Assembly (NCBI GenBank): GCA_964514975.1
Contig: CAZESS010000001.1
Location: forward strand, 62,197-126,196
Length of the DNA stretch: 64,000 bases
Direction: 5' to 3'
Origin: an uncultured Thermoplasmatales archaeon
GTDB taxonomy: Archaea > Thermoplasmatota > E2 > UBA202 > DSCA01
The position numbers and the translations under genes are program-made. The notes under the pieces were generated by a model. The model ran no database searches, was not told where the DNA came from, and saw only the letters and a list, made by a program, of their open reading frames with translations. Shown here one piece after another: positions 2,581-21,976 of this stretch (within the stretch, counting starts at the first letter, position 1; every line of letters starts with the position of its first letter).

Positions 2581-2606
2581 TAGCAACTTTGCGAGTGCGT
2601 GGAAAC

Positions 2607-5600: not shown

Positions 5601-7469
5601 ATCGATGAAAACGAAGTCAAGAAAAACACCGAATTCGGCATTTTGCTCGATGACGGGTCTTGGGAATGTCCTAGAAGTGGGAGGACAAATCCTAGTGGCG
5701 CTATAGAAAGCGTTAACGTCACAAAAAACATGATTGAAGGCAATGGAGCGGGTGTTTTTGTTTTTGATATCAATGGAGACACTGAATCAGCAGTCACAAT
5801 CAACTACAACAACATTAGCAACAACACCTGGGGCATTCAGGTGCATGAGACCTATCAGGACGACATCGTTGACAACGAGTTCTGGTACAACGGCGACAGT
5901 GCCAGCGGAAATGGCGGCGCAATCAATCTCTCTCGGGTCAACGACACCTATCTCTCCGGAAACACCCTGCGGTACAATTATCACGGCGTATGGATGGAGA
6001 ACTGCGAGGACAACCTAGTTGAGTACAATGACATCCAACAAACGTTGCCCGATTGCGATGGGAGTCCCTCTGAGATTCCCCCAATCGGCGTTGTAATTGT
6101 TGAGAGTGACTCCTTCAATGTCATCCAGCACAACAACGTTTCCAGTTATCCTATTGGAATAGCTTTGGCGGAAACGACGCACGAGAAGGTGAGATACAAC
6201 GACGTTTCGTTCAACATGTACGGCGTGTTGCTAGCTCAGACTAGCCTCAGCAATATCATCGGAAACGAGATATACAGCAACAGCGAAGACGGCGTCCTCT
6301 TTCAGGAATCCGACCACAATAACCTGACGGGAAACCACATATACGACAACACCATCGGCGTGAACTTCACCACCTCTCCCTACAACAACCTGACCGGCAA
6401 CGACATATTGAACAACGCCGACAAAGGCATCCACCTGTATATGGGTTCCAGCTACAACAACCTCACCGAAAACTATGTGGCTGACAACAACTACGGCATC
6501 TACCTCGAGGGCTCATCGACCACACTCCCCGAAAATATCACCATCCGCGACTGCGTTGCATCCGGCAACGCAGAGCACGACTTCTTTGCCACCGACCATA
6601 CAGTCAACACGACGGTCACCAACCTCACCGTGTCCAGCTATCCGACATCGGTTGATTTCACCTATGGATATGGCATCGCACTGAAGGGTGTTGCGCATGC
6701 AGAGCTGCATCCCAATCCTGGCTACGCTGACATCGGCAAGTTCTTGAATATCACCAACGTGACCGCGACCTCGTGGATCAACATCAGCATCCATTACGAG
6801 GAGGACGACCTCGACCAAACGGATGAGGATACGCTGATGCTCCATCGGCTGAACGATACATCATGGGAGCTAGCGAATCCGGACTACGAGATGGTCAACA
6901 CGGCTGACAACTATCTGCGGGCCAACCTATCCGAGTTCAGCATCTTCGGCGTGTTCGGTGATTTCACCCGGTACTGGATGAACCTGTCGGAGGGCTGGAA
7001 CATGGTCACGCTGCCGGTGTGGAACAGCAGCTTCGTCAATGCGCAGGATCTCGGCGAATGGATACCGGATTGCACGATGGTATCCCGGTGGAACCCCCAG
7101 GAGCAGATGTATGTCACCCATGTGGTTGGCTATGGATCAGGCTTCAACCTGGTGAACGGCTCGGGCTACTTTGTATATGTGACCGCGGATGTGTCAAAGG
7201 AATACACGGGCATGGGGCAGGCAACGGCGAACCTGACCGTGATGGACGGCTACAACCTGCTCGGCTGGACGCAGACGATCGATACCAACGCTTCTGCATT
7301 GCTGGCATCGATCGAGAACTGCCTGAAGCTCGGCATGTATGACCCGGAAGATGGATGGCTGCCGCAGTATTTCGCTGGGTCGCCTGCACCGCTGAACTTC
7401 GAGGTCGTGGCGGGTGACGGCGTGTTCGTGTACGTCACCACGGGCAGCAGCACCTGGAACGGCAGCTAG
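2607..7469 (+). CDS. Large secreted protein 1: carboxypeptidase-regulatory-like repeats, PKD domain, parallel beta-helix, conserved C-terminal module
   Basis: Signal peptide MKEKIVTLLTVSLLILAG; GTVYDNSTGDPV/T..DG.Y repeats; PKD WSWEFGDG..THSY; N.I..N..GI beta-helix repeats; many N-x-S/T sequons. Confidence 0.85.
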   Translation: MKEKIVTLLTVSLLILAGLSSLAGGQSAADSTAPVEGASVNLAWTDGTYTDGNSTSTNATGYYEMNVAEGTVNITVEHSDTQENETLNVKNFTGNFTVADCPSTYWKNITLPAFPQDNATLVGTVYDNSTGDPVEADISISFTGSYFTGSNSTTCATDGSYSIDLPPSEVTVTADATGYYSASNTTTIGEETKTLNVYLEPEPPETATVKGYVTNSDNGTGIENMFLYFSSLNSSYSNYTYSNADGYYECDLAAENFSISPYPDEYFSNSTMFELNDSEVKWVNMSFIPTPPDNAWVEGHVYDNATGSPLANAGVSVSGSSRLDFYNYSHYFNNGTMTNSSGYYNVSIPAVEAVELYTYYKNKTEIYSIYAYKADYFDNSSSGDIIEPGGVMVRDINLTAKPPENCIVKGYINQSGAPSGNTPPSASFTIEPGSISTGETVYFNSTSTDSDGSIASWSWEFGDGSTATGAEVTHSYSDDGSYTVNLTVADDDGASDTASETVTVGADIYVDDDAPDSWYDATHVHTIQEGVDNATAGDTILTEPGEYEENIDIYRSNITLRSSESHEAVINGSVEITADGVTVEGMNITNADYYELPQNSGTVGIYVNQSEDGFEVDLRDNRIAGADYGIYIRDKNEGHGGLATIEGNDITDIEEHAIFFHAHGTYTVEHVTVTNNTITDSVKGIKIYACDQSIIETVTVENNTFKEEKSDKGHAIRVHAGGGWEADEYGGRIDAVTIDNNIVIGEIDSDQGHGIRVHSGYLSRGIGSVDITDNVVEYPGEQGIRVQLHGNSTEEGVTITDNEVTGNDFTKKGIRVDTASSEPGHIITLKDVVVENNLVTEIDGSDKNVIGIRVKAGGYDDATHIENVSVIGNEVTDGAGEGIRVQTGGIDENISTMGTVIVENNTVTDNEERGIRVHAGAGNYSKSSHPDSYPTGSSIDTAIVEGNIVIDNGVIGVRVSAGNNSIVSTATIEDNYVEGHKVGIWDRACDEGIIKSLTIDENEVKKNTEFGILLDDGSWECPRSGRTNPSGAIESVNVTKNMIEGNGAGVFVFDINGDTESAVTINYNNISNNTWGIQVHETYQDDIVDNEFWYNGDSASGNGGAINLSRVNDTYLSGNTLRYNYHGVWMENCEDNLVEYNDIQQTLPDCDGSPSEIPPIGVVIVESDSFNVIQHNNVSSYPIGIALAETTHEKVRYNDVSFNMYGVLLAQTSLSNIIGNEIYSNSEDGVLFQESDHNNLTGNHIYDNTIGVNFTTSPYNNLTGNDILNNADKGIHLYMGSSYNNLTENYVADNNYGIYLEGSSTTLPENITIRDCVASGNAEHDFFATDHTVNTTVTNLTVSSYPTSVDFTYGYGIALKGVAHAELHPNPGYADIGKFLNITNVTATSWINISIHYEEDDLDQTDEDTLMLHRLNDTSWELANPDYEMVNTADNYLRANLSEFSIFGVFGDFTRYWMNLSEGWNMVTLPVWNSSFVNAQDLGEWIPDCTMVSRWNPQEQMYVTHVVGYGSGFNLVNGSGYFVYVTADVSKEYTGMGQATANLTVMDGYNLLGWTQTIDTNASALLASIENCLKLGMYDPEDGWLPQYFAGSPAPLNFEVVAGDGVFVYVTTGSSTWNGS
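6618..7469 (+). repeat. Shared C-terminal coding repeat, copy 1 of 3
   Basis: Near-identical to 10410-11261 and about 16986-17837; 6696-7186 reads identical to 17064-17554. Confidence 0.95.
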
Positions 7470-7510
7470 CCCTCCCGCCACTTTTTCCCTCTTTTTTTCT
7501 GTGTTTTTAT
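7470..7510 (+). terminator. Pyrimidine/oligo-T terminator
   Basis: CTTTTTCCCTCTTTTTTTCT just after the TAG. Confidence 0.55.
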
Positions 7511-7583
7511 TGCAGAGTTAGGAAATTTTAAATACAGAATCCGGGTTTATTCTTCACTCCATCGTAGGTAGGAGGCACAGATT

Positions 7584-10500
7584 ATGAAAGCAAGACATGC
7601 ATATATCTTGGGAATTGTGGGAATAGCCGTGTTCATCGGAGTTATGGCGATGAACGCCGACGCAAGCGGAACCGAAGTCATATATTCAGATGACTTTGAG
7701 GCAGATGACGGTGGTTGGACCCCGTGGGCCAACTGGGATCCGGTTGGTGACTGGGAATGGACAGACACCTATGATGTCAGTAGTTATGCCGGTAGCCATA
7801 ATCCGCCGACCGTGGCGCATTCCGGTGATGGTCTCTGGGGCACCGTGCTCTATGACGACTACACAAACTCCGGTGGCGAGACATACATCAGCAAGACCTT
7901 TGACTTTTCCGGCTATTCCAATGTAAACATGACCTTCTGGTACTGGAGCGACCTCTTCGGCACATGGGACTATGCAAAGCTATATGTCAACGGTGTAGAA
8001 GTCTGGTATGTTGACACCCAGCCCGGTACGGCCTGGGAGCAGGCGGCCATCGACCTGTCCCCGTGGGACTACATGTCAGATGTCAACGTGACCTTCGAGG
8101 TGCATGCTAGCACCGTGGTGAACTATGCCGGCCTGTACATTGACGATTTCAATCTGACCGGTGTTCTATCACGCTATGTGGACGATGACTTCGATGCCGC
8201 CACGCCGGGCTGGGGCACGACACATTTCGACAGCATACAGGATGCCATCGATGCTGCCGGCGAGGGCTGCACCATCTATGTCTGGGATGGCCTCTACAAT
8301 GAGACCAACATCCATGTCGATAAGACCCTGACTATTATCGGAAACACCACCGTTGATGCGATGACCGGCGCCGTATCGTGCAACACCAATGTCAACTACA
8401 CCGACAAGGGTTTCATCGTTAAGGCGGACCATGTCAACATCTCGGGTTTCAACCTGACCAATAACGGCGTTATCGCTGGGTGTAGAGGCGTGCTGGTCAA
8501 TCATTCCAGCCACTGTAATATCTCGGGTAACATTATCCAGGAGGACTATGATGGCATCAAGCTCAACCACTCGGATGACAACATCGTGTACAACAACATC
8601 ATCCGCAACCAGTCGATGTATGGCATCTGGCTGAACAATGCCAGCAACAACGTGGTCAACTCGAACGGCATCTACAACAATTATATCGGCGTTTTCTATC
8701 AGCCAGAGATGATGTATCAGGTCATGCCCGCCTGCTGGAATACAATTGTGGGGAACAATATATCTCACAACGGCTGGGGCATCGAGATGTTCGGGACATA
8801 TGAGGATGACATCCTGAGCAACACGTTCTGGTACAACGGGGAGATATCTGGAGGAAAGACACGTGAAAACGGTGGCCCTGCCGATGGCGGTGCAATCCAT
8901 CTCCTTATGGCAAATGATACATACATCTCGGGCAATCACATGAAATACAATTTTCAGGGCATCTGGATGGAGAACTGCGATGATAATGTGGTGGAGCACA
9001 ACGAAATCAACCAGTCCATGATCATTCCCAACGGAAATGGTAGGTCCTACCATATCTATGTCGAGGGCAAAGAGGGATGGACGCTGGTTGAAACGCTCCA
9101 TCTTTCTCGCAACTATGAACGAACGACGGTTACGCTTCCATCCGGAGCAGGCGAATACCGTGTCCGTATCGTGCAGTCCGGCGGCGTGGCAGCTCATGTT
9201 GACCAGATGGTGCTGCTTGACGGTGAAACGGTTGTCCCCGTGTCTGCTGTCTGCGACGGAAGCGACATCGTAGAAAAGCTGTATGCCGTTGATAACGACG
9301 TGGCAGATATCTGGGAACGGACAATCGAGCTGACCTGGCAGGGCACTTTTGTCTCTCCAACACTGCTGCTGGTGGCGAACGAGGAACAGCCAGCCTATAT
9401 TTCGCCCATCCGTACACCCTCTATTATGCATCCCACTCTGATGGAGTTGTACACGCTGGAGGACAGTGGTGCTATAATGGTGGACGGCGAGCCCGATGAC
9501 CTTGCGGTGCCTGATTTTTCCGATTACTGGGCACCGACCAGTGGTCACCCTGCCGGAGACACGTTGGTGTGGCTTCGGTCTGATGGCGAGTATCTTTATG
9601 GAGCGATGGAGGTAACCGCGGATAACACCTATGACATGACGGGCTGGGGTTCACTCTACATCGCGACCGATAATGTTGTGCGGGAGTTCCGAGTCGATGC
9701 ATCCGATGAATCCTACGGCGTTGGTGGTTTTGTATACACCGACACCGTCGGCTGGCAGCACATGCTCTACGAGTTCCAGATACCGCTGGCGGACATCGAT
9801 GCCTCCATCGGCGACACCATCCGGGTTGGCTACGGTAGCTACGGGACCCTTGGGGGTATGCCCGCAGGTGTGCAGATCGATGGCATGGACGGCGATGGCT
9901 CCTACAACGTTATCCAGTACAACAATATTTCAGGATATAACTCGGGCATATATCTTGTCCACACGGACCATGAAGAAGTTTGGTACAACAACATCTCATC
10001 CAATGGATATGGGGTATACATAGATAACACCTGGTATAGCAACGTGACATGCAACCACATCTATAGCAACGGCGACGGTATCTATGCTTACTATGCAGAA
10101 TACAACAATATCACCGGGAATGATATTGATAACAACCACCATGGGGTTGGCCTGACATATTATAGCAGGAACAACAATATCGCGGGCAACAATATACAGG
10201 ATAACACCAACTGGGGTATTGCTCTCCATCCATATGCCGACAACAACCATGTAATCGACAACGACATAGCAGCCAACCGCTATGGCATCTACATATCCGG
10301 GAATTCCCCCTCTTTTGCACCCGATGGCAATACCATCCTCGACTGCAGAGCCAGCACCAACACCATGTATGACTTTTACGCAACAAACTACACCTATAAC
10401 ACCGTCGTAACCAACCTCACCGTGTCCAGCTATCCGACATCGGTTGATTTCATCTATGGCGACGGCATCGCGTTGAAGGGTGTTGCGCATGCAGAGCTGG

Positions 10501-11261
10501 CGTTGAATCCGGGCTATGCCGCCATTGACAAGTTCTTGAACATCACCAACGTGACCGCGACCTCGTGGATTAACATCACCATTTATTACGAGCAGGATGA
10601 CGTTAGCGAGACCGATGAGGATACGCTGGCGTTGCAGCGGCTGAACGGTACAGCCTGGGAGATGGCGTCTCCGGACTACGAGATGGTCAACATATGTGAA
10701 AACTATCTGCGGGCCAACCTATCCGAGTTCAGCATTTTTGGCGTGTTCGGCAACTTCTCCCGGTACTGGATGAACCTGTCGGAGGGCTGGAACATGGTAT
10801 CGTTGCCGGTGTGGAACAGCAGCTTCGTCAATGCGCAGGATCTCGGCGAATGGATACCGGATTGCACGATGGTGTCCCGGTGGAACCCCCAGGAGCAGAT
10901 GTATGTGACCCATGTTGTTGGCTATGGTTCCGGCTTCCAACTGGTGAACGGCTCGGGCTATTTTGTATATGTGACCGCGGACGTGTCAAAGGAATACACG
11001 GGCATGGGGCAGGCAATGGTGAACCTGACGGTGATGGACGGCTACAATTTGCTCGGTTGGACGCAGACGATCGATACCAATGCATCTGTGTTGCTGGCAT
11101 CGATCGAGAACTGCCTGAAGCTCGGCATGTATGACCCCTCGCTTGGATGGCTGCCGCAGTATTTCGCTGGGTCGCCTGCACCGCTGAACTTCGAGGTCGT
11201 GGCGGGCGACGGCGTGTTCGTGTACGTCACCACGGGCAGCAGCGCCTGGAACGGAACCTAG
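7584..11261 (+). CDS. Large secreted protein 2: N-terminal jelly-roll (MAM/InhA-like), beta-helix with inserted CBM9/DOMON-like module, conserved C-terminal module
   Basis: AGGAGG RBS, signal peptide, SDDFE..GGW...AHSG..LWGT...GLYIDD, beta-helix repeats, shared tail. Confidence 0.85.
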   Translation: MKARHAYILGIVGIAVFIGVMAMNADASGTEVIYSDDFEADDGGWTPWANWDPVGDWEWTDTYDVSSYAGSHNPPTVAHSGDGLWGTVLYDDYTNSGGETYISKTFDFSGYSNVNMTFWYWSDLFGTWDYAKLYVNGVEVWYVDTQPGTAWEQAAIDLSPWDYMSDVNVTFEVHASTVVNYAGLYIDDFNLTGVLSRYVDDDFDAATPGWGTTHFDSIQDAIDAAGEGCTIYVWDGLYNETNIHVDKTLTIIGNTTVDAMTGAVSCNTNVNYTDKGFIVKADHVNISGFNLTNNGVIAGCRGVLVNHSSHCNISGNIIQEDYDGIKLNHSDDNIVYNNIIRNQSMYGIWLNNASNNVVNSNGIYNNYIGVFYQPEMMYQVMPACWNTIVGNNISHNGWGIEMFGTYEDDILSNTFWYNGEISGGKTRENGGPADGGAIHLLMANDTYISGNHMKYNFQGIWMENCDDNVVEHNEINQSMIIPNGNGRSYHIYVEGKEGWTLVETLHLSRNYERTTVTLPSGAGEYRVRIVQSGGVAAHVDQMVLLDGETVVPVSAVCDGSDIVEKLYAVDNDVADIWERTIELTWQGTFVSPTLLLVANEEQPAYISPIRTPSIMHPTLMELYTLEDSGAIMVDGEPDDLAVPDFSDYWAPTSGHPAGDTLVWLRSDGEYLYGAMEVTADNTYDMTGWGSLYIATDNVVREFRVDASDESYGVGGFVYTDTVGWQHMLYEFQIPLADIDASIGDTIRVGYGSYGTLGGMPAGVQIDGMDGDGSYNVIQYNNISGYNSGIYLVHTDHEEVWYNNISSNGYGVYIDNTWYSNVTCNHIYSNGDGIYAYYAEYNNITGNDIDNNHHGVGLTYYSRNNNIAGNNIQDNTNWGIALHPYADNNHVIDNDIAANRYGIYISGNSPSFAPDGNTILDCRASTNTMYDFYATNYTYNTVVTNLTVSSYPTSVDFIYGDGIALKGVAHAELALNPGYAAIDKFLNITNVTATSWINITIYYEQDDVSETDEDTLALQRLNGTAWEMASPDYEMVNICENYLRANLSEFSIFGVFGNFSRYWMNLSEGWNMVSLPVWNSSFVNAQDLGEWIPDCTMVSRWNPQEQMYVTHVVGYGSGFQLVNGSGYFVYVTADVSKEYTGMGQAMVNLTVMDGYNLLGWTQTIDTNASVLLASIENCLKLGMYDPSLGWLPQYFAGSPAPLNFEVVAGDGVFVYVTTGSSAWNGT
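10410..11261 (+). repeat. Shared C-terminal coding repeat, copy 2 of 3
   Basis: Offset 3792 from copy 1; scattered substitutions. Confidence 0.95.
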
Positions 11262-11296
11262 CCCCTTCCCCCCTCTCCTTTTCCCGTTTTTCTCTC
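11262..11296 (+). terminator. Pyrimidine-rich terminator
   Basis: CCCCTTCCCCCTCTCCTTTTCCCGTTTTTCTC after the TAG. Confidence 0.5.
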
Positions 11297-11489
11297 ATAT
11301 TTAAACAGGTAAAAGGCCAGATGGTGGTGAATACTATCCGCCTGAAAAACGTTTGCCCCTGTGTTTTATAGCCATTATGTCCTGTATGGCATCTTTCGAG
11401 AGTATTTAGATAGGTTTTTATACTATGCACTTGTTATAATGTAATTCCATAAACCATGGATATGTATAGGATATAGGAGGAATAAAACC

Positions 11490-14400
11490 ATGAAACGAAC
11501 AACACATATTTTAGCGATAGCGGGAGTAGTGGCGGTGGCGGCCCTGGCAGTGATGGCGTTTGGCGCCACGCAGGCAGATGCAGAAACCATAAATGTACCA
11601 AGTGACTATTCCGCCATACAGCAAGCAATAGACAATGCCACCAGTGACGACACCATTGACATCGCCAGTGGATATACGCATGATGGGACAAGGATTATCG
11701 TCGACAAGGATTTGACCATCGAGGGCAACAACGCGGTGATAGATGCAGGGATAGATATTGAAAGCGGCGCTGACGTCGTCATCAATAATCTCACCATCCA
11801 GGATCTCTCTACCGCAGATACCTCATCGTGGTCGGGTCTTTCAACAGCGGGCTCTGAATGGATTGTGGTCGGTGTGCGAAGCGGAACACTGACAGCGACC
11901 AACCTGGACATAACGCAGACAAACACTCTTTCAGCACAATATGTTAACCTGGTCGGCATTTCAGTCCAAAACGGCGAGGAGATGACGTTGAACGATTCCA
12001 CCTTCGATCTTACCAATGTAAACTATAGTCTGACGTACGGTGTCTATGCTCAGCAGGGGGCGACTGGTGTATCTCTTAATGATAACACATTTAACTTGTG
12101 GAGCGAGAGACGGACAATGTTTATCGGAACGGAGTTCTATGCAACCGGGGAGCAGGTTCCGATACAGATGACGAACAATGTGTTCAATGCGGCCGGCTCT
12201 GATTTTGGATACTGGCTGCAGGTTTTCAGTGGTTCGTCAATCACCAGGGAAATGGTAAATAACTACATTGATGGCAACCTGACCGCCGGGAGAATCTCGC
12301 ATGTGTATCTTGGAGGATGGTATGACTATATCTCCGGAGGACCATGTGACGCTATTATCTACGACGGACAGTCAATACAGACCGCCATTGATGAAGCAAG
12401 CCCCGGCCATACAATCTGCGTTGCAGCGGGAACGTACACCGAAAACATTGTCATCCCAAAGCCTCTAGTTTTAAAGGGTCCCAATGCTGGTATTGACCCA
12501 AATACAGGTAATCGTGTTGCAGAAGCAAACATTACTGCTAAAATTACTGTAGACGCAAACGATGTGAGCATACTGGGATTCAATATCAGTGACTCTACAG
12601 CGATGGATTTCTACAATGGCAACTTGGATAATCTGACGATTTCCTGGAATTATATCATCGGGATGAATGATGGAATACAGGTGAACTATTTTGAATGGAG
12701 CGGCACGAGCTATGATTCACATAATGTAACCATCAGCCACAATTACATCGGTGATATGACGGGAACAGCAACGAGGAGTCCATTTTATATTGGTGGGCTT
12801 GTCAGCTCTGATATCTCGTACAACACATTTTCAAATACATTGTGGGGCGGGATACAGTTAGCTGGTTGTAGCGACCTGGATTTCACCTATAATAGGTTCG
12901 TGAATATTACGGAGAAGAAAAGCTACTGGGTCCAGTTCACAAAAGATAATGAAAACGTTAGGATACTGTACAATACCGGCATCAACACGACCGGAGGAGT
13001 GAAATTGTATGGTAATGATCAAACGGATTACCATATCGATTTTGAAATCGCACACAATACGTTTAACTCTCTCGTTCCACCAGATTCTGGGACAGGGAGC
13101 CACCAGGAGCCCCATATCACAGTTTGGGACTTCTACGGAGCTTACGCAGATGGGTTGGATATACATGATAATAAGATAAACCAAGAACTCGATAACCTCA
13201 TCGCTGGTACGTCATCCACCTCTGCGATGGCATTCTTTGGTGTTCTGGACGATATAACGGTACAGAACAATAATTTGACAGTGACAGGGTCCCTTGCCTC
13301 TGCTTCAAATTACTATGGGATGTATATCCGTGGGGGGCCCAAGAGTTACACCATCCAAGGGAACTCATTCATTGGTTCCTCAGCAGATGGTACGATGGGC
13401 ATTAAACTGGCTATCAATGAGCATCCTGCATATACTGGATACGCTAGCGACGGGACAACCGTTTTAATACCATGGTCGCCGTCAGATACTGATATTCAGA
13501 TTACTCAGAATGCGTTCGATGCATTTGACTACGGGCTGAAATTCTTCCGAAATTATCCGCAGGAAGACGGCCTGGTGGCAGGTGCTACGGTTGATGTCAA
13601 CTATAATACAATACAGAACAGTGTTACTGCCGGCATAAGCAATGCAGGCGGCCAGCAAATTGTGGATGCCACTTACAACTGGTGGGGTCATCCATCCGGG
13701 CCGAACCATACCAGCAATCCGTCGAAGGACAACGGCATGGGCGACAACGTGAGCGACAACGTCCACTTCTCGCCGTGGCTCAACGCGCCGTATCCTGGCG
13801 GCAAGGCCATCGACTACTGGAACCCCATTTCTGTTGATGGCGAGGCAGACATTAACGAAAAAGCGAACGCAGACACCACGGTAAATATCACGACCACCGA
13901 AGAGCAAAACGTTACCGTCCAGAACTATGTGGGCGACCCCCAACCCGGTGCAGGCTCCCCGCAGGGTATCGGTCCTATCGGCAAATACGTCAATGTATCC
14001 GTCGAGAACGAAACAGCGGTTGAATGGCCGGTGAACATCACCATATACTACACTCAGGCGGATCTCGATGCGGCTGGCATCCCCGAGACGATGCTGGCGG
14101 CGATGCTCTACTACAACGAGACATCCGGTGATTGGGAGGCATACAACGATACCGGCGTCAACACCACGTATTCCGAGGACGGATACGAGGGCTACGTCTG
14201 GGCGAACGCCTGGAACAGCGACCAGCTTTCGCCGAAAGCCCAGAGCGGCTTTACCGATGTGTGGGTGGACGATGACCAAGATCCGAGCTGGTATGACACC
14301 CGGCATGTCAGGACCATCCAGGAGGGCATCGGCAACGTCACCGAGGGCGGCACCGTCCATGTCTGGGATGGCCTGTACAGAGGGACCAACATCCTTGTTG

Positions 14401-17400
14401 ACAAGAGCGTTGACATCATCGGCAACACATCGGTCGACGCGTTGAACGGTGCGGTATCATACAATACCAATGTTACCTATACGGACAAGGGCTTCGTCGT
14501 CGAGGCGGATTATGTCAACATCACGGGTTTCAACCTGGCCTATTGGGGAATGAATCCGGCTCCATGTGGCGGCGTGCTGGTCAATCATTCCAGCCACTGT
14601 AACATCTCCGGCAACATCATCCAGGATGACGCGGATGGCATCAAGCTCAACCATTCGGATGACAACATCGTGTACAACAACATCATTTCCGGCCAGTCGG
14701 ATTTCGGCATCTGGCTGGTGGACGCCGCGAGCAACGTCATCGAGGCGAACAACATCACCGACAACTCTTTCGGCATATACTATGAGACGTCTGAACCTGT
14801 GCCTGCCTCATGGAACACCATCGTGGCTAACAACATTTCCTCTAACGATTACTGGGGCATCTACATGGAGGACACGGACAACGAGACCATCATGTACAAC
14901 TGGTTTTATGGCAACGGCATCACGGAGGGCGGCGCGGTTTATTTCTGGGACGTTGAGAACAGCACCGTAGCGGAGAACGAGATGTACGGCAACCTCGAGG
15001 GCATCGTGCTGGAGAATTGTTACAATGTGACCGTCGAGTCCAACATCATCATCGGGCTGTCTATACCTGACGATGGCGGCGAGACCTACACCGTGTCTGT
15101 CAACACGGGCGAGGGATGGGAGGTCTGTGAGGAGCTTCGTTTCCCCCGATATTATCGAACTGAGCATGTCAGATTGCCCTCATCGACAGGTGACACCTAT
15201 CGGGTGCGCATCGAGCAGCATGGCGGCATCGCCGCGCATGTCGACTATGTCGCCCTGGGTCGCGGCGCGTTACACACCCCTGACCAGGCCATCGTGCATG
15301 GCGACGGGACGAGCGTGATGGACAAGCTGCTTGCCCGGGACAACGACGTTGCAAGTGCATGGGAGCAAACCATTGAGCTGACCTGGAACGAGCGATTCAC
15401 TGAGCCCGTGCTGGTGATGGTGGCCAACGAGGAGCAGCCGATGGAGATGGAGATACCGCTGCGGACCCCGTCGGTGATGACCCCCGACAACATGGAGCCA
15501 TATACGCTGCAAAACAACGGCGCCATCGAGGTCGATGGCACACCTGACGGGCTGGGTGAGGCTGACTTTTCTGATTTCTGGATGCCCATGAGCGGTCATC
15601 CATGGGGAGATACCCAGGTATGGCTTCGCTCGGATGGCGAGTATCTCTACGGCGTGATGGACATAACATCGGATAACACCTGGGATGACACCGGCTGGGC
15701 GTCGCTCTACGTTGCGGTTGGCGACGAGGTACAGGAGTTCCGGGTTGATACTGACGACCAGACCTATGGCACCCCCGGTTTCGTGTACACCGACGCTGTT
15801 GCATGGCAGCACGTGTATTACGAGTTCAAAATACCGCTGGCGGACATCGAGGCCTCCCTCGGTGACACCATCCGTGTTGGCTACGGCAGCTATGGAACAA
15901 GTGCGCAGATAATTGGCAGCACCGGTGTTCGCATCAGCGGTGGCCGTACCAACAACACCGTCCGAGGCAACGTGCTGGAGGAACACGCCCATGCCATCGC
16001 GTTGCAGTGGGTGGATAACGAGACCATCGAGGACAACATTTTGTACAATAATTCCTATGGCATATGGGTGGAGATGTGCCGCGATGTCAATGTGACCGGC
16101 AACATCATCGACAACGCTCCCGGCTGGGGGGAGGAGGGCATCCATGTAGCCGATATCGGGATGATGGTTGGCTATCCGGTTGATGAGTATTGCTACAACA
16201 ACGTCAGCGACAACGTGGTGATGAACTGCTCATATGGCATCTATCTCCAGTATACCGACAACGAGACCGTGGCGGACAACATCCTGTACAACAACACATA
16301 TGGCATCTTGCTCGAGGGATGCCGCGACATAGACGTGACCGGCAACCTGGTCGACAATCCGCCGATGTGGGGAGAGTTTGGCATAGTGGTTACGGACATG
16401 TACTTGAACGGAGACACCGCTCCAGAGCGGTGCTTTAACAACCTCAGCTACAACATGGTTGCAAACAGCTCGTATGGCATCGCCCTTGTATCTACAGATA
16501 ACGAGACCGTCTATGCCAACACCGTCACTAACTGCACATCATATGGCATAGCCCTTGACGCGGTGAGAGATTCCCTTATATGGGACAACGTTCTGACTGC
16601 CAACGGGTACTCCTCCATGTATATCAGTCCGGCGAGCGGTATTATGCTCTATGACTGTTACAATGTGACCGTGCTCTCCAACGATATCAACGGCAGCTTC
16701 GTCGGCGATAACGCCGGCATATCCATCATTGGGATGAGCGAGGGCGGAGGCAGTGTCGAGGGCTCGTACAATACCATTGTGGATAACACGATCTGGCAGT
16801 GCTTCGGCGCCATCGCACTATTCGGTACCGACCACGAAACACTTGAGGGCAACACAATGTATGACAACGGGCAATACGGCATCTACATTGCGGCCTCGTA
16901 TGACAGCGTTATCGCGAACTGCACGGTGTCCGATACCGCAGGATATGACTTCTGGTCTGATTCACCCTCGTATAATAACACGGTCGCCAATCTCACCGTA
17001 TCGAGTTATCCGACATCGGTTGATTTCACCTATGGCAACGGCATCGCGTTGAAGGGCGTTGAACATGCAGAGCTGCATCCCAATCCTGGCTACGCTGACA
17101 TCGGCAAGTTCTTGAATATCACCAACGTGACCGCGACCTCGTGGATCAACATCAGCATCCATTACGAGGAGGACGACCTCGACCAAACGGATGAGGATAC
17201 GCTGATGCTCCATCGGCTGAACGATACATCATGGGAGCTAGCGAATCCGGACTACGAGATGGTCAACACGGCTGACAACTATCTGCGGGCCAACCTATCC
17301 GAGTTCAGCATCTTCGGCGTGTTCGGTGATTTCACCCGGTACTGGATGAACCTGTCGGAGGGCTGGAACATGGTCACGCTGCCGGTGTGGAACAGCAGCT

Positions 17401-17837
17401 TCGTCAATGCGCAGGATCTCGGCGAATGGATACCGGATTGCACGATGGTATCCCGGTGGAACCCCCAGGAGCAGATGTATGTCACCCATGTGGTTGGCTA
17501 TGGATCAGGCTTCAACCTGGTGAACGGCTCGGGCTACTTTGTATATGTGACCGCTGATGTATCCAAGGAATACACGGGCATGGGGCAGGCAATGGTGAAC
17601 CTGACCGTGATGGACGGCTACAATTTGCTCGGCTGGACGCAGACGATCGACACCAATGCATCTGCGTTGCTGGCATCGATCGAGAACTGCCTGAAGCTCG
17701 GCATGTATGACCCCTCGCTTGGATGGCTGCCGCAGTATTTCGCTGGGTCGCCTGCACCGCTGAACTTCGAGGTCGTGGCGGGTGACGGCGTGTTCGTGTA
17801 CGTCACCACGGGCAGCAGCACCTGGAACGGCAGCTAG
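11490..17837 (+). CDS. Large secreted protein 3 (2115 aa): multiple beta-helix domains, inserted CBM9/DOMON-like module, conserved C-terminal module
   Basis: AGGAGG RBS, signal peptide, IQ.AID.A helix-cap motifs, DATYNWWG.PSGP motif, shared tail. Confidence 0.85.
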   Translation: MKRTTHILAIAGVVAVAALAVMAFGATQADAETINVPSDYSAIQQAIDNATSDDTIDIASGYTHDGTRIIVDKDLTIEGNNAVIDAGIDIESGADVVINNLTIQDLSTADTSSWSGLSTAGSEWIVVGVRSGTLTATNLDITQTNTLSAQYVNLVGISVQNGEEMTLNDSTFDLTNVNYSLTYGVYAQQGATGVSLNDNTFNLWSERRTMFIGTEFYATGEQVPIQMTNNVFNAAGSDFGYWLQVFSGSSITREMVNNYIDGNLTAGRISHVYLGGWYDYISGGPCDAIIYDGQSIQTAIDEASPGHTICVAAGTYTENIVIPKPLVLKGPNAGIDPNTGNRVAEANITAKITVDANDVSILGFNISDSTAMDFYNGNLDNLTISWNYIIGMNDGIQVNYFEWSGTSYDSHNVTISHNYIGDMTGTATRSPFYIGGLVSSDISYNTFSNTLWGGIQLAGCSDLDFTYNRFVNITEKKSYWVQFTKDNENVRILYNTGINTTGGVKLYGNDQTDYHIDFEIAHNTFNSLVPPDSGTGSHQEPHITVWDFYGAYADGLDIHDNKINQELDNLIAGTSSTSAMAFFGVLDDITVQNNNLTVTGSLASASNYYGMYIRGGPKSYTIQGNSFIGSSADGTMGIKLAINEHPAYTGYASDGTTVLIPWSPSDTDIQITQNAFDAFDYGLKFFRNYPQEDGLVAGATVDVNYNTIQNSVTAGISNAGGQQIVDATYNWWGHPSGPNHTSNPSKDNGMGDNVSDNVHFSPWLNAPYPGGKAIDYWNPISVDGEADINEKANADTTVNITTTEEQNVTVQNYVGDPQPGAGSPQGIGPIGKYVNVSVENETAVEWPVNITIYYTQADLDAAGIPETMLAAMLYYNETSGDWEAYNDTGVNTTYSEDGYEGYVWANAWNSDQLSPKAQSGFTDVWVDDDQDPSWYDTRHVRTIQEGIGNVTEGGTVHVWDGLYRGTNILVDKSVDIIGNTSVDALNGAVSYNTNVTYTDKGFVVEADYVNITGFNLAYWGMNPAPCGGVLVNHSSHCNISGNIIQDDADGIKLNHSDDNIVYNNIISGQSDFGIWLVDAASNVIEANNITDNSFGIYYETSEPVPASWNTIVANNISSNDYWGIYMEDTDNETIMYNWFYGNGITEGGAVYFWDVENSTVAENEMYGNLEGIVLENCYNVTVESNIIIGLSIPDDGGETYTVSVNTGEGWEVCEELRFPRYYRTEHVRLPSSTGDTYRVRIEQHGGIAAHVDYVALGRGALHTPDQAIVHGDGTSVMDKLLARDNDVASAWEQTIELTWNERFTEPVLVMVANEEQPMEMEIPLRTPSVMTPDNMEPYTLQNNGAIEVDGTPDGLGEADFSDFWMPMSGHPWGDTQVWLRSDGEYLYGVMDITSDNTWDDTGWASLYVAVGDEVQEFRVDTDDQTYGTPGFVYTDAVAWQHVYYEFKIPLADIEASLGDTIRVGYGSYGTSAQIIGSTGVRISGGRTNNTVRGNVLEEHAHAIALQWVDNETIEDNILYNNSYGIWVEMCRDVNVTGNIIDNAPGWGEEGIHVADIGMMVGYPVDEYCYNNVSDNVVMNCSYGIYLQYTDNETVADNILYNNTYGILLEGCRDIDVTGNLVDNPPMWGEFGIVVTDMYLNGDTAPERCFNNLSYNMVANSSYGIALVSTDNETVYANTVTNCTSYGIALDAVRDSLIWDNVLTANGYSSMYISPASGIMLYDCYNVTVLSNDINGSFVGDNAGISIIGMSEGGGSVEGSYNTIVDNTIWQCFGAIALFGTDHETLEGNTMYDNGQYGIYIAASYDSVIANCTVSDTAGYDFWSDSPSYNNTVANLTVSSYPTSVDFTYGNGIALKGVEHAELHPNPGYADIGKFLNITNVTATSWINISIHYEEDDLDQTDEDTLMLHRLNDTSWELANPDYEMVNTADNYLRANLSEFSIFGVFGDFTRYWMNLSEGWNMVTLPVWNSSFVNAQDLGEWIPDCTMVSRWNPQEQMYVTHVVGYGSGFNLVNGSGYFVYVTADVSKEYTGMGQAMVNLTVMDGYNLLGWTQTIDTNASALLASIENCLKLGMYDPSLGWLPQYFAGSPAPLNFEVVAGDGVFVYVTTGSSTWNGS
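16986..17837 (+). repeat. Shared C-terminal coding repeat, copy 3 of 3
   Basis: Offset 10368 from copy 1. Confidence 0.95.
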
Positions 17838-17882
17838 CCCCTTCCCCCTCTTTTTCCCCTCTCTTTTCTCTTTTTTTCTCCC
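17838..17882 (+). terminator. Long pyrimidine tract terminator
   Basis: About 45 nt consisting only of C/T after the TAG. Confidence 0.55.
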
Positions 17883-17916
17883 AAAACCTTTTTTAACGCG
17901 CGCTTGATGTCTTAGC

Positions 17917-18495
17917 ATGGCTGACGAGCAGGAGTTACAGCATCTCAGAGTCGTTCTTGATTACCTTCCCTGTGAGGACTGCGAGCACCGCGTTCCCGAG
18001 GAGGAGCGCCGGTACATGTGCTCCATGTGCGGCAGGATCAACAGAAACGTTTCAGCGGAGATAGCGGTGCCCCGCTGGCGAACCGAAAACGGCAGCGTTG
18101 TCGCAGTGGAGGGCCGTGACATCGAGGAGCTGCGCCCCGAGGTGTCGATGAAAACGGAGACGGAGGAGGAACCCGAGGAGCCAGAGGGGCCAGAGGAGGA
18201 CATGACCGAGGAAATCGAGGTGCTCGAGATTGGCGTCGACGTGCCGGAGGAGGAAGAGGAACCCGATGAGGAGGAGCTTCCCGAATGGGAAACCGTGGAG
18301 GAAACACCGCACACCGTCGGCGAATACACCCTGTACACCAAGGAGGCAACCCTGCGAGGCGGACGCAAACAGCAGATATTTTTTTATGCGAAAAAAGAAA
18401 AAAAGGATGCCACTCCCTGCGCCAAGCCCGAGGGCTACGATGTCAAGGTCAACGAAAACACCGGCTTGCCCGTCCTCAAAAAGAAAAAAAAGTAG
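17917..18495 (+). CDS. Hypothetical protein: Zn-ribbon, acidic linker, basic C-terminal domain
   Basis: CEDC...CSMC; E-rich middle; YTLY...TGLPVLKKKK end; TTTTTAA box upstream. Confidence 0.75.
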   Translation: MADEQELQHLRVVLDYLPCEDCEHRVPEEERRYMCSMCGRINRNVSAEIAVPRWRTENGSVVAVEGRDIEELRPEVSMKTETEEEPEEPEGPEEDMTEEIEVLEIGVDVPEEEEEPDEEELPEWETVEETPHTVGEYTLYTKEATLRGGRKQQIFFYAKKEKKDATPCAKPEGYDVKVNENTGLPVLKKKKK

Positions 18496-18501
18496 CCGAC
18501 A

Positions 18502-19506
18502 ATGCACATCGAGGAGTTCGACTACCCTCTGCCACAGGAGGCTATCGCGCAGCATCCCGCCATCCCCCGGGACAGCTGCCGCCTGCTCGTCATGGATGAC
18601 GGCATCCGTCATCATCGTTTCACCGACATCACGGGCTATCTCCACGAGGGAGACGTCCTGGTGGTCAATGACACCCGGGTCAGGCATGCCCGCATCCACG
18701 CCCGGAAGAACACCGGCGGAAAAATCGAGCTGCTCGTGCTCGGGCAGGAAAACGGCGCATACCGATGCATGATCAAGGGACGCGTCCACGAGGGCACCGC
18801 TGTCGAGCTGCCCGACGGCGAAACCGCCACCGTTATCCGCAAAAACGGTGGCATCTGCCACCTGGACATCCCACACGGGATTGAGCAGCTCGAGGCGATG
18901 GGCGAGATGCCGCTGCCACCGTACATCAAAGCCGACCTCGCCGCCGAGACAAAGGAGCGATACCAGAGCGTCTACGCCGACGAAAAAGGATCCGTGGCCG
19001 CGCCGACAGCCGGCCTGCATTTCACTCCCGAGCTGCTCGACCGCATCCGCCACAAGGGTGTCACCATCGCCGCCATCACCCTGCACGTCGGCATCGGCAC
19101 CTTTATGCCCATCCGGGACAGGCACGTCGAAAACCACAGCATGCAGCGCGAATGGTACCGCATCGATGGGAGAGCAGCCGCAGCCATCAACCGGGCATCG
19201 GGCGACGTCATCGCCGTGGGCACCACCACCATCCGGGCGCTGGAGAGCGCCACCGTAGACGGCGAGGTGCAGCCCGGCGAGCGGAGCACCGACCTGTATA
19301 TCTATCCCGGATACCGCTGGCAATCGCCGGTCGACGGCATGCTCACCAACTTCCATCTGCCGCAGTCCACACCCCTGCTCATGGTCTGTGCCTACGCCGG
19401 CAGAGACTGCATCATGCGGGCATACCGGGAGGCGCTCCGGCATGGCTACCGGTTTCTCAGCTTCGGCGACGCGATGTATATCCGGGGGGCGCCATGTTCG
19501 AGATAG
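18502..19506 (+). CDS. queA: S-adenosylmethionine:tRNA ribosyltransferase-isomerase
   Basis: FDYPLPQEAIAQHP, VVNDTRV, MPLPPYI, RYQSVYA..GSVAAPTAGLHFT, TLHVGIGTF, AVGTTTIRALES, TNFHLPQST, YRFLSFGDAM. Confidence 0.96.
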   Translation: MHIEEFDYPLPQEAIAQHPAIPRDSCRLLVMDDGIRHHRFTDITGYLHEGDVLVVNDTRVRHARIHARKNTGGKIELLVLGQENGAYRCMIKGRVHEGTAVELPDGETATVIRKNGGICHLDIPHGIEQLEAMGEMPLPPYIKADLAAETKERYQSVYADEKGSVAAPTAGLHFTPELLDRIRHKGVTIAAITLHVGIGTFMPIRDRHVENHSMQREWYRIDGRAAAAINRASGDVIAVGTTTIRALESATVDGEVQPGERSTDLYIYPGYRWQSPVDGMLTNFHLPQSTPLLMVCAYAGRDCIMRAYREALRHGYRFLSFGDAMYIRGAPCSR

Positions 19507-20552
19507 CGGCGGAGCAGGAACAGGCCAGAGCCGGCGTGCTGCACACCAGCCACGGCGACATTGCCACCCCGGTGTTTTTGCCCGTCGCGACCAAGGGAGC
19601 CATCAAGACGCTGACGCCGGAGGAGGCATGGAGGACGGGCAGCAGGATGCTCATCGTCAACTCGCTGCATCTCTACCGCCGGGGCATGTCGCGCATCCGG
19701 CGTGCCGGCGGCATACACGAGTTCATGCAGTGGAATGGTGCCGTCGTCAGCGACAGCGGAGGATTCCAGCTGATAAAACAGTTTCCCTGCGAGATAGACA
19801 CCGACGGCATCCGGTTCACCATGCCCGACGGCTCCAGCGACCTGTTCACCCCCGAAAAATCAGTAGCGGTGCAGGAGCAGCTCGGTGTCGACATCGCCCT
19901 CGCGCTCGACGACTGCCCGTCCCACCCGGCGGAGCAGGAGCGCGTCGCCCGGGCGGTCGACACCACCATCAGATGGGCAGAGCGATGCCAGGGCGATGGC
20001 CGCTTCGCCATCCTGCAGGGCGGTATCGATGCCGGACAGCGTGTGCGCTGCGCCCGCGCCATCGCCGGGATGGACTTCGACGGCTACGCCATCGGCGGCC
20101 TCTGCATCGGGGAGCCAAAGGACACGATGCACCGCATGGTCGCGGCGACCATCCCGCATCTGCCATCCGGGAAGCCCCGCCACCTTATGGGCGTCGGCTC
20201 ACCCGGGGACATCTGGCGCGCCGTCGCCGCCGGCGTCGACATCTTCGACAGCGCCTATCCGACGCGCAACGCCCGGCATGGCACCATTTTCATTCCAGGC
20301 GGCAAGGTCAACCTGGGGCGAGCGAAGACATCCGGCAGCGTGATAGACGACACATGCGACTGCTACGCCTGCCGGCATTTCAGCCTCGACTACCTCAACC
20401 ACCTGTTCCGGGAAAAAGACCCGCTTGGGCCGCGGCTGGCGACGGTCCACAACCTCACCCATGTCAACCGGGTCGTTGCGGCGGCGCGGGAGCGCATCCT
20501 GGCGGGAAAAACGCTAAAAACGAACACGGGCATACAGTTTGATGCTGTTTGA
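19494..20552 (+). CDS. tgt: Bacterial-type tRNA-guanine(34) transglycosylase
   Basis: TPVFLPVAT, SDSGGFQ, LDDCP, LQGG, GYAIGGL, HLMGVG, DIFDSAYPTRNARHG, Zn site CDCYAC...HN; about 350 aa, no archaeosine-TGT C-terminal PUA extension. Confidence 0.93.
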   Translation: MFEIAAEQEQARAGVLHTSHGDIATPVFLPVATKGAIKTLTPEEAWRTGSRMLIVNSLHLYRRGMSRIRRAGGIHEFMQWNGAVVSDSGGFQLIKQFPCEIDTDGIRFTMPDGSSDLFTPEKSVAVQEQLGVDIALALDDCPSHPAEQERVARAVDTTIRWAERCQGDGRFAILQGGIDAGQRVRCARAIAGMDFDGYAIGGLCIGEPKDTMHRMVAATIPHLPSGKPRHLMGVGSPGDIWRAVAAGVDIFDSAYPTRNARHGTIFIPGGKVNLGRAKTSGSVIDDTCDCYACRHFSLDYLNHLFREKDPLGPRLATVHNLTHVNRVVAAARERILAGKTLKTNTGIQFDAV

Positions 20553-21255
20553 AACCAATCACGGGGTCATCGTCGCCTGTGACGTCGACACCCATAACGC
20601 TTTTGAACATCTCGTCCAGCAGACCTGTCACCTCGAGGGTGTCGTCGGATACAAAATCGGTACCCTCCTGGGTCTGACCTATGGCCTCAGGCCGCTCACC
20701 GAGATGGTGGCGGAGCACTGCAATCTGCCCGTCATCTACGATCATCAAAAAGCGGCGACGGACATCCCGCAGATGGGCGAGCCCTTTGCCCGGGTCTGCA
20801 AAAACGGTGGCGTCGACAGCGTCATCCTGTTCCCCCAGGCGGGCCCTGAAACCGAAAAAGCGTTCATCCGGGCCGTCATCGAGCATGACATGGTGCCGAT
20901 GGTCGGCGGCGAGATGACCCATCCCGGTTATCTCACGGAGGAGCAGGGATACATCCGGAGCGACGCGCCACCCGACATGTACCGCCTTGCCGCCCGGCAT
21001 GATGTATCCTATTTCATCGTCCCCGGCAACCGGCCGGCGGCGCTACAGCGCTACCATGACCTGCTCACCGGCATTATGGACATGCCGGCGTTCTGCATGC
21101 CCGGCATCGGCCGGCAGGGGGGCTCCATCCGCAGCGCCTTCGAGCAGCTTGGCAGCACGGCGAAATATGCCATTGTGGGCTCCGCCATCTACACGAGCGA
21201 TGACCCCGAGGCAGCGGCACGTGAGCTGGCCCGGGAAGCCCTGGAGTTCGAGTGA
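20539..21255 (+). CDS. pyrF: Orotidine 5'-phosphate decarboxylase
   Basis: IVACD, GYKIG, YDHQKAATDIP, PGIGRQGG, IVGSAIY; followed by pyrE. Confidence 0.88.
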   Translation: MMLFETNHGVIVACDVDTHNAFEHLVQQTCHLEGVVGYKIGTLLGLTYGLRPLTEMVAEHCNLPVIYDHQKAATDIPQMGEPFARVCKNGGVDSVILFPQAGPETEKAFIRAVIEHDMVPMVGGEMTHPGYLTEEQGYIRSDAPPDMYRLAARHDVSYFIVPGNRPAALQRYHDLLTGIMDMPAFCMPGIGRQGGSIRSAFEQLGSTAKYAIVGSAIYTSDDPEAAARELAREALEFE

Positions 21256-21259
21256 TATC

Positions 21260-21976
21260 ATGGAAGCCAAAGACATCATGGAGGAACTGTACCGGCACGG
21301 CCTCGTCAAAACATGGCACCGTGACCGGCCCGAGGGATGGACACTGGTGTCCGGTCTCTGGAGCCCTTTTTACATCAACCTCAGGGCGCTCCCCGGTCAT
21401 CCCCGGCTGTTCATGGCGGTCGGCGAACGCCTGGGCGAGATGATACTGGAGCGCTGCGATCTCGACAGCGTCATGGGCATCGCCATGGCCGGTATCCCGC
21501 TTGCATCGGCGGTTGCGGTGCAGCACGGCGTCCCCATGCTCTACACCCGGAAGCTCAGGGGCGTGAAATCGCTGGAGGCGCTCCGCGAGGCCGCACAGCA
21601 GTACGGGCAGCATTCCCTGGTCGAGGGAGCCATGCATGACGGCGACCGGGTGGTCGCGCTCGATGATTTGGTCACGCGGTTTGACAGCAAGCTCGTCGCC
21701 GTCGAGCAGCTCGCGATGGAGGCAGACCGCCGCGGGGTGGATATATCCTGCTGCGACGTCGCGGTGCTCATCGACCGGGAGCAAGGCGCCGGCGACATCG
21801 CCGCCCGGCACGGCATCAGGCTGCACGCGTTGATACCATTCCAGAGCCATGGCATCGACTGGCTCCACGATGTCTTCACCGACGTGGAATACGAGGTCAT
21901 CAGCGACTACCTGCACGACAGCGACAAATACCAGGACGAGCAACGCCGCCGTGACATCATCGACTCCTTCAAATAA
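21260..21976 (+). CDS. pyrE: Orotate phosphoribosyltransferase
   Basis: WTLVSGLWSPFYINLR, GIAMAGIPLA, PRPP loop VVALDDLVT, VLIDREQG. Confidence 0.88.
   Translation: MEAKDIMEELYRHGLVKTWHRDRPEGWTLVSGLWSPFYINLRALPGHPRLFMAVGERLGEMILERCDLDSVMGIAMAGIPLASAVAVQHGVPMLYTRKLRGVKSLEALREAAQQYGQHSLVEGAMHDGDRVVALDDLVTRFDSKLVAVEQLAMEADRRGVDISCCDVAVLIDREQGAGDIAARHGIRLHALIPFQSHGIDWLHDVFTDVEYEVISDYLHDSDKYQDEQRRRDIIDSFK

Follow-up and report, generated by a model that had tools for sequence, protein, structure and literature searches.

The 64,000-nucleotide stretch of DNA analysed here (hereafter the window; GenBank assembly GCA_964514975.1, contig CAZESS010000001.1, positions 62,197 to 126,196 of the forward strand), derived from an uncultured Thermoplasmatales archaeon, carries queA and tgt, two genes of bacterial queuosine synthesis, directly behind a gene for an uncharacterised zinc-ribbon protein, here called up192. 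Taken together, the genomic and phylogenetic evidence makes it likely that up192, queA and tgt constitute a working three-gene operon, continued by pyrF and pyrE in one family (f1) of the window's order, and that this operon is part of a complete bacterial-style de novo queuosine pathway, the other genes of which are found elsewhere in the genome, on different contigs. Such a pathway runs against the textbook rule, repeated for example in the introduction of a 2026 preprint on QueC, which assigns queuosine to Bacteria and Eukarya and reserves archaeosine for Archaea. Surprising against this rule, the finding has nevertheless been published in outline, and the present locus is a well-documented further case of a known oddity; what it adds is the complete pathway in a single genome, the coexistence with archaeosine synthesis, counts across the order and the phylum, and a third conserved gene.

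An initial annotation of the window, made from the letters alone, had described an intact queA overlapping a short bacterial-type tgt in the bacterial gene order, with tgt in turn overlapping pyrF, and this description was borne out in full. Both open reading frames (ORFs) are intact (Table 1) and score above the NCBIfam cut-offs; queA and tgt share 13 nt, while the overlap of tgt with pyrF amounts to 14 nt if counted from the TTG start of pyrF, or to 11 nt from the ATG one codon downstream. QueA matches NF001140 with 385.3 bits (cut-off 324) and TIGR00113 with 343.3 bits (cut-off 267.45) over residues 1-328 of 334, in addition to 381 bits with PF02547. The start of tgt is an ATG common to all orthologues, and residues M1 and F2 are invariant in the ortholog alignment. 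The deduced protein matches the tRNA-guanine transglycosylase (TGT) superfamily model TIGR00449 with 352.6 bits and passes the G34 equivalog model TIGR00430 with 351.7 bits (cut-off 306.75) over residues 2-340, an assignment with which Pfam agrees. Its identification as the archaeosine enzyme TgtA was rejected, as the score with TIGR00432 is 132.7 bits against a cut-off of 350 and the protein, with 352 amino acid residues, lacks the C-terminal PUA-type domains. Among solved structures, the window Tgt is closest to a bacterial Tgt (283 bits), followed by the Zymomonas mobilis enzyme (~255 bits), human QTRT1 (240 bits) and the Pyrococcus horikoshii archaeosine TGT 1iq8 (82.5 bits). A grouping with archaeosine TGTs, considered in the initial annotation as one outcome that would overturn its reading, is therefore not what was found.

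The LDDCP and GGLCIGE motifs, from which a preQ1-type base pocket had been predicted, are both present and align with residues D156/C158 and G229-E235 of Z. mobilis Tgt (D139/C141 and G201-G202-L203-C204-I205-G206-E207 in the window protein). Only two positions of the pocket differ, both conservatively (A232 to C and V233 to I), and the pocket pair is distinct from the Val/Gly of eukaryotic queuine enzymes. Residues D87 and D252, aligned with Z. mobilis D102 and D280, are invariant in 27 orthologues, as are D139, D140, I205 and E207 and the zinc site CxCxxC...H (C288, C290, C293 and H319); overall, the essential positions show little or no variation. For Z. mobilis Tgt, the catalytic aspartates are D102, within the DSGGFQ motif, and the nucleophile D280; D156, C158, the GGLxxGE loop with E235 and the zinc site are likewise essential, and E235 and C158 fit preQ1. 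Both genes are under purifying selection, with ratios of nonsynonymous to synonymous substitution rates (dN/dS) within the genus of 0.18-0.21 for tgt and 0.21-0.27 for queA. Judged from these features, the window Tgt would exchange G34 of GUN-anticodon tRNAs for preQ1, whereas QueA, given the family to which it belongs, its coupling to tgt and the purifying selection acting on it, is predicted to convert preQ1-tRNA to epoxyqueuosine-tRNA with S-adenosylmethionine (SAM).

In line with the initial annotation, neither queF nor queG nor queH was found inside the window, which had left the supply of preQ1 and the last step of the pathway open. The search of the remaining genome, which among the preQ0-synthesis genes covered QueC, QueD and QueE, located QueF, QueH, a queD-queC-queE cluster, and a separate TgtA together with ArcS (Table 1), while no match to the QueG model TIGR00276 was detected in the genome. 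The translation of QueF displays the stretch with the catalytic Cys and the sequence E-L-Q-S-L-K-L-Y, recognisable as the NADPH-binding motif of QueF. No YhhQ/QPTR-type transporter (PF02592) was found in the genome; QueT-type and other importers were not searched for. Three of the four expected Tgt substrates are present in the assembly, namely tRNA-Asn(GTT), tRNA-His(GTG) and an intron-bearing tRNA-Tyr(GTA), and each has the U33-G34-U35 loop, a requirement of bacterial Tgt. Introns occur in many tRNAs of this genome, tRNA-Tyr included.

The following route would connect these genes. QueD, QueE and QueC are expected to make preQ0. TgtA and ArcS would use it to form archaeosine at G15, the route familiar from other archaea. 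Another share of the preQ0 would be reduced to preQ1 by QueF, the window Tgt would swap G34 of GUN-anticodon tRNAs for preQ1, the window QueA would add the epoxycyclopentanediol moiety from SAM to give epoxyqueuosine, and QueH would finally reduce epoxyqueuosine to queuosine. As full archaeosine and queuosine routes appear to be encoded in one genome, one preQ0 pool could feed both G15 and G34. The earlier proposal that this archaeon makes queuosine at position 34 is thus strengthened by QueF, QueH and the queD-queC-queE cluster. What the sequences themselves establish is the presence and family assignment of the genes, their conserved catalytic residues, purifying selection, joint inheritance across the order and the archaeal setting; which reactions the enzymes catalyse, on which tRNAs they act, what nucleoside results and whether both routes draw on the same preQ0 are, as before, predictions from the genes.

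Table 1. Genes of the window operon and of the deazapurine pathways elsewhere in the genome (locations in the window are nucleotide positions, others are contigs; scores in bits, with the model cut-off after the slash).
Feature	Location	Strand	Product or remark	Score/cut-off or model
up192	17917..18495	+	192-aa uncharacterised protein, zinc ribbon; stops 6 nt before queA	
queA	18502..19506	+	tRNA preQ1(34) S-adenosylmethionine ribosyltransferase-isomerase, 334 aa	NCBIfam and Pfam scores (see text)
tgt	19494..20552	+	bacterial-type tRNA guanosine(34) transglycosylase, short form, 352 aa	TIGR00430 score (see text)
pyrF	20539..21255	+	divergent orotidine-5'-phosphate decarboxylase; operon neighbour outside the queuosine unit	
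pyrE	21299..21976	+	divergent orotate phosphoribosyltransferase; operon neighbour only	
QueF	C36			154.5/86.9 (TIGR03139)
QueH	C4			206.1/23.5 (PF02677)
QueC	C12			211.4/150.3
QueD	C12		under cut-off; best match of the ORF flanking queC	73.9/89.25
QueE	C12		under cut-off; best match of the ORF flanking queC	229.1/300
TgtA	C17		635 aa	531.7/350 (TIGR00432)
ArcS	C18			465.8/440

The GTDB class of the window comprises 197 species genomes, in which the distribution of the four queuosine-specific genes was surveyed; the window's own genome is left out of the counts. The order to which the window belongs comprises families f1, f2 and f3, with 12, 25 and 1 other species genomes, respectively (38 in total). 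Tgt and QueA were each identified in 10/12, 22/25 and 0/1 of these, QueF in 11/12, 23/25 and 1/1, and QueH in 11/12, 22/25 and 1/1, so that each of the four occurs in 32-35 of the 38 genomes. The remaining 158 genomes of the class yielded one QueA, one QueF (below cut-off) and no QueH. Most of the misses within the order fall in genomes that are 60-93% complete, and in one case (G166) the upstream gene stands at a contig end. Across the phylum, 401 genomes were sampled and 88 of them yielded a QueA, 72 of these above the cut-off, with the carriers spread across many families. Two phylum genomes that consist of a single contig and are 99% complete carry Tgt (448-465 bits) along with QueA, and the QueA relatives close to this closed-genome family are titled 'DHVE2 group archaeon'.

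Phylogenetic trees of both proteins, obtained from quick IQ-TREE searches with Shimodaira-Hasegawa-like approximate likelihood ratio test (SH-aLRT) support only, follow the genome taxonomy and are congruent with each other. In the Tgt tree of 104 rows, the 30 sequences of the order form one clade (SH-aLRT 99), within which f1 (97) and f2 (99) are each monophyletic; a branch with support 100 separates this clade, together with four other archaeal sequences, from the rest of the tree, although two of these four are long branches of unsure placement. In the QueA tree, the 34 rows of the order likewise form one clade (SH-aLRT 99), sister to the same two Thermoplasmata metagenome-assembled genomes (MAGs) as in the Tgt tree (90). 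The phylogeny of the two enzymes, suggested in the initial annotation as a check, gave monophyletic order sequences that mirror archaeal taxonomy. From the trees, the order-wide counts and the dN/dS values it follows that vertical inheritance of the queA-tgt pair, with purifying selection acting on it, goes back to a time before the diversification of the order; the two genes are not recent acquisitions and were already in the ancestor of the order. QueA possibly goes much deeper in the phylum: in a 56-row QueA tree all 29 Thermoplasmatota rows form one group, with an SH-aLRT of only 85, which makes a single old acquisition of QueA in the phylum possible. No bacterial donor can be named, because in all the trees the bacterial rows were simply the nearest hits.

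Several other observations concern Tgt and QueA homologues in the class and the phylum. In family f6 of the same class, 34 of 108 genomes carry a different Tgt of ~395 amino acids with TIGR00430 scores of 450-480 bits (loci L090-L119, e.g. L098:1486-2670) and contain no QueA, QueF or QueH. The f6 Tgt groups with DPANN Tgt, and in place of the GGLxVGE loop of bacterial enzymes it shows G-G-(gap)-S-L-G-K. Since the equivalent of E235 is missing, and QueA, QueF and QueH are absent, a salvage-only or altered-substrate enzyme is suggested. Several complete genomes of family f40 of the phylum (e.g. G380, a single contig, 99% complete) encode a QueA-like ORF of ~350 residues scoring 114-152 bits against a cut-off of 267. 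This ORF may represent a diverged paralogue of QueA that serves a different role; no match to Tgt was found in G380. In G179 (f2), two near-identical up192-queA-tgt units are located on separate contigs (G179:C63 and G179:C98; L140 and L141), reflecting either a duplication or a mixture of strains in this bin, which has 4% contamination.

Several points weigh against a complete queuosine pathway in this archaeon. The Tgt pocket carries Ile for the Val233 and Cys for the Ala232 of characterised bacterial enzymes, and both QueD and QueE score below their NCBIfam cut-offs. No tRNA-Asp(GTC) was found in the assembly by aragorn with and without introns, by a pattern scan or with Rfam RF00005, a lack treated here as an assembly gap, not as a real absence, in a genome rated 98.9% complete. 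No RNA run was listed for the locus, a result that speaks neither for nor against its expression, and, to our knowledge, queuosine has never been chemically detected in any archaeon. Finally, three genomes of genus g9 in family f2 (G175-G177) have neither tgt nor queA nor a full-length up192; G176 and G177 keep QueF and QueH, G175 keeps QueH only, and three sister species in the genus carry everything. The lack of the three-gene unit in G175-G177 may be a recent loss or may reflect a poorly assembling region or assembly gap.

Some of these points would also fit a route that modifies tRNA and differs in its course or its end product, stopping at preQ1 or epoxyqueuosine, leading to a further derivative, or drawing on salvaged precursors. 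The two substitutions in the base pocket, the absence of QueG, the low scores of QueD and QueE and the extra conserved gene of unknown function in the operon all speak in its favour. The presence of QueH, co-inherited with the other three genes, argues however for reduction to queuosine, and that of QueF, restricted to the same order, for in-house formation of preQ1. No transporter of the YhhQ/QPTR type (PF02592), the importer type covered by the search, was found. The conservation of the E235 and C158 equivalents, which accommodate preQ1 in the Z. mobilis enzyme, points the same way, and a variant route of this kind is considered unlikely.

Far less probable is a redeployment of Tgt to DNA, in the manner of DpdA, or to another position of tRNA. 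TGT-fold paralogues are described as modifying DNA in some bacteria and phages (PMC5699537), and archaeal tRNAs are unlike bacterial ones. Nevertheless, the window Tgt passes the G34 equivalog model, is translationally coupled to QueA, the sole known substrate of which is preQ1-tRNA, and co-occurs with QueF and QueH; it is flanked by queA and pyrF and not by any dpd gene. As to a grouping with DpdA, raised in the initial annotation, no defence model of the PADLOC library, which presumably includes one for DpdA, matched Tgt at E <= 0.01. The GUN tRNAs of the genome, moreover, possess the U33-G34-U35 loop needed by bacterial Tgt.

A bacterial origin of the DNA itself was also weighed, that is, the queA-tgt pair being bacterial sequence misjoined to or misbinned with an archaeal genome. 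The genome is a 1.96-Mb MAG of 66 contigs, with an estimated completeness of 98.9% and contamination of 2.9%, and foreign-looking contigs are really present in it (C6, C34, C41-C43 and others, with tetranucleotide correlations of r < 0), C6 bearing a second QueC. The window, on the other hand, is located on the largest contig (C1), is free of any N and encodes an archaeal replication factor C (RFC) large subunit at 54435-55775 (NF003231, 445.5 bits, cut-off 442). The tetranucleotide signature of C1 correlates with that of the genome at r = 0.987, and the contigs that hold the proposed pathway (C1, C4, C12, C17, C18 and C36) at r = 0.968-0.994. The GC content at third codon positions of queA and tgt is 0.82-0.83, and their codon usage correlates with that of seven housekeeping genes of the window at r = 0.92 and 0.93, respectively. 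The host-like codon style and the archaeal character of the contig, both asserted in the initial annotation, were thereby corroborated.

The junctions of the locus were examined as well. A Logan contig from the run that holds the locus best matches positions 17811-20425 with 0 differences; it is not independent, because this run is probably the source sample. A 1369-nt contig of a different study covers 18425-19793 at ~92% identity and bridges both the up192/queA and the queA/tgt junctions. Runs X2-X5 hold small shares only, and of these the contigs of X2 were used, solely for junction bridging. Eight genes of this region, among them up192-queA-tgt-pyrF-pyrE-oxidoreductase-aldehyde dehydrogenase, recur in unchanged order in another MAG, at 71-85% amino acid identity. 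The chimeric junction that the initial annotation had allowed for is contradicted by the lack of any N, by the conserved order of the locus in relatives and by the bridging contig. Given these results, the same archaeal neighbours in separately assembled genomes, the Tgt and QueA trees and the two closed genomes that carry both genes, contamination and chimerism are excluded as far as sequence data allow, and their probability is negligible.

The outlying contigs are described here in their own right. In the window's genome (G000), contigs C6, C34 and C41-C43 and several of less than 3 kb have a GC content of 0.35-0.46 and a negative tetranucleotide correlation, and on account of these two properties are probably contaminants; besides its second QueC, C6 carries two tRNAs.

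The gene upstream of queA is a constant feature of the locus, and this constancy is new here: up192 stands directly before queA in 33/33 loci of the order that hold queA with upstream sequence, either overlapping it or at most 6 nt away (locus L160, which consists of only the tgt end at a contig start, lies outside this count). The protein starts with a four-Cys zinc ribbon, which an acidic linker connects to a basic, beta-rich C-terminal domain of ~55 residues. The cysteines C19, C22, C35 and C38 and a P-E-W motif (122-124) are invariant in 30 orthologues, and within the genus dN/dS lies at 0.12-0.18. Searches of Pfam, NCBIfam and PADLOC gave no family match for up192; a relaxed Pfam search gave generic zinc-ribbon noise of <= 16 bits on the N-terminus and nothing on the C-terminus, and the ESM Atlas returned no usable hit. 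None of its 42 database homologues is functionally named, the few with names being hypothetical proteins of Thermoplasmatota MAGs. Full-length up192 is confined to the window's order, and in distant archaeal queA-tgt loci the upstream gene is a different one. The C-terminal domain alone, by contrast, is encoded in 194 of the 197 class genomes, in several copies each and often as ORFs of 60-90 residues.

An AlphaFold2 model of up192 from 30 sequences has a mean predicted local distance difference test value (pLDDT) of 62, with only the C-terminal ~60 residues confident (~84). As the best Z score in a fold search against 48,161 PDB representatives was only 2.5, no fold was assigned. A complex prediction for Tgt, QueA and up192, each supplied as an alignment, scored 0.00, a value that says nothing on binding. 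It is a speculative and rather improbable proposition that the order's unit of inheritance comprises three genes, with up192 as a dedicated partner of the imported enzymes. Such a partner could, for example, help the bacterial-type Tgt or QueA to engage archaeal tRNAs, or govern the split of preQ0 between G15 and G34. If it were true, queuosine would be an ancient trait of Thermoplasmatota that has been passed on vertically and has an archaeal accessory factor of its own.

The genes following tgt appear to be divergent forms of two pyrimidine enzymes. PyrF matches PF00215 with 47.2 bits (cut-off 27) and NF010386 with 69.4 bits, under the cut-off of 208, and PyrE matches TIGR00336 with 66.8 bits, under the cut-off of 106.8, yet it is the best pyrE match of the genome. 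The only other gene of the OMPdecase family in the genome is a hexulose-6-phosphate synthase fusion, and the second-best match to the pyrE model (C8) is an adenine/hypoxanthine phosphoribosyltransferase. The sub-cut-off NCBIfam scores prompted the idea that pyrF and pyrE are paralogues recruited to deazapurine chemistry; it was rejected, because they are the sole candidates in the genome for these essential enzymes and because they follow tgt in family f1 only, not in f2. As the scores fall far under the cut-offs and no other candidates exist in the genome, the lineage of the window appears to have divergent PyrF and PyrE.

Directly upstream of the operon, at window positions 2589-17837 on the forward strand, lie three genes for giant beta-helix surface proteins with a lower GC content (0.45-0.57). 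The tail of the last of them is conserved beside up192 in relatives.

With the proposed pathway in place, a whole archaeal order would run two pathways side by side from one precursor, in a phylum in which about one fifth of the sampled genomes have QueA. Such archaea would offer a natural system for studying how preQ0 is partitioned between two tRNA modifications, and they raise the question of whether queuosine tunes the decoding of NAU and NAC codons in archaea as it does in bacteria. Archaea in which the prediction can be checked are indicated by the closed genomes of this phylum, since relatives of these carry the label DHVE2 group. For annotation practice, queA and tgt in archaeal MAGs should not be thrown out as bacterial contamination during curation.

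Literature searches linking queuosine to Thermoplasmatota, including Marine Group II, Thermoprofundales, MBG-D, DHVEG, Methanomassiliicoccales and Aciduliprofundum, brought up only incidental or unrelated papers among those listed, and of the papers listed since 2021 on queuosine, archaea, QueH and QueF, judged by titles and abstract openings, none appeared to concern an archaeal pathway. The suspicion of the initial annotation that archaeal occurrences had already been reported proved right: QueA, a QueH-like protein and Tgt were described as co-localised, with DPANN and some Methanosarcinales named in a figure and 34 genomes listed, and the archaeal queuosine genes were interpreted as functional genes gained by lateral transfer (Castelle et al., 2021; PMC8204110). 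The main text of that paper mentions neither QueF nor preQ1 and brings up Thermoplasmatales in another connection only; the 34 genomes may include some of Thermoplasmatota. The window genome resembles those archaea in having bacterial-type queuosine genes in an archaeal genome, and differs from their co-localised sets in that QueH and QueF are unlinked from queA-tgt. The DPANN-type Tgt, furthermore, belongs to another clade than the window Tgt and groups with the form that occurs as Tgt only in family f6.

With TgtA, as represented by the P. horikoshii structure 1iq8, the window Tgt shares the TIM-barrel TGT superfamily, as indicated by its TIGR00449 score; it differs in the missing PUA-type domains, in its low scores with TIGR00432 and 1iq8, and in that the genome possesses a separate TgtA.

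The closest known counterpart is the bacterial queA-tgt operon and de novo pathway of Escherichia coli and of QueH users such as Thermotoga. The likeness extends to the same enzyme families, recognised here with curated models, the queA-then-tgt order with overlapping frames, the preQ1-type pocket and, as in QueH-using bacteria, the use of QueH instead of QueG for the last step. The operon differs from the bacterial one in having no yajC-secDF or ruvAB neighbours and in the lineage-specific zinc-ribbon gene upstream. The loci around queF, queH, queDCE and tgtA showed neither a preQ1 riboswitch nor a match to any other Rfam family at E <= 0.1, a further departure from the bacterial system, and the Tgt is short (336-354 amino acids in the order), with Cys-Ile for Ala-Val in the GGLxxGE loop. 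Finally, the operon resides in an archaeon equipped with TgtA and ArcS as well, so that preQ0 would have two fates.

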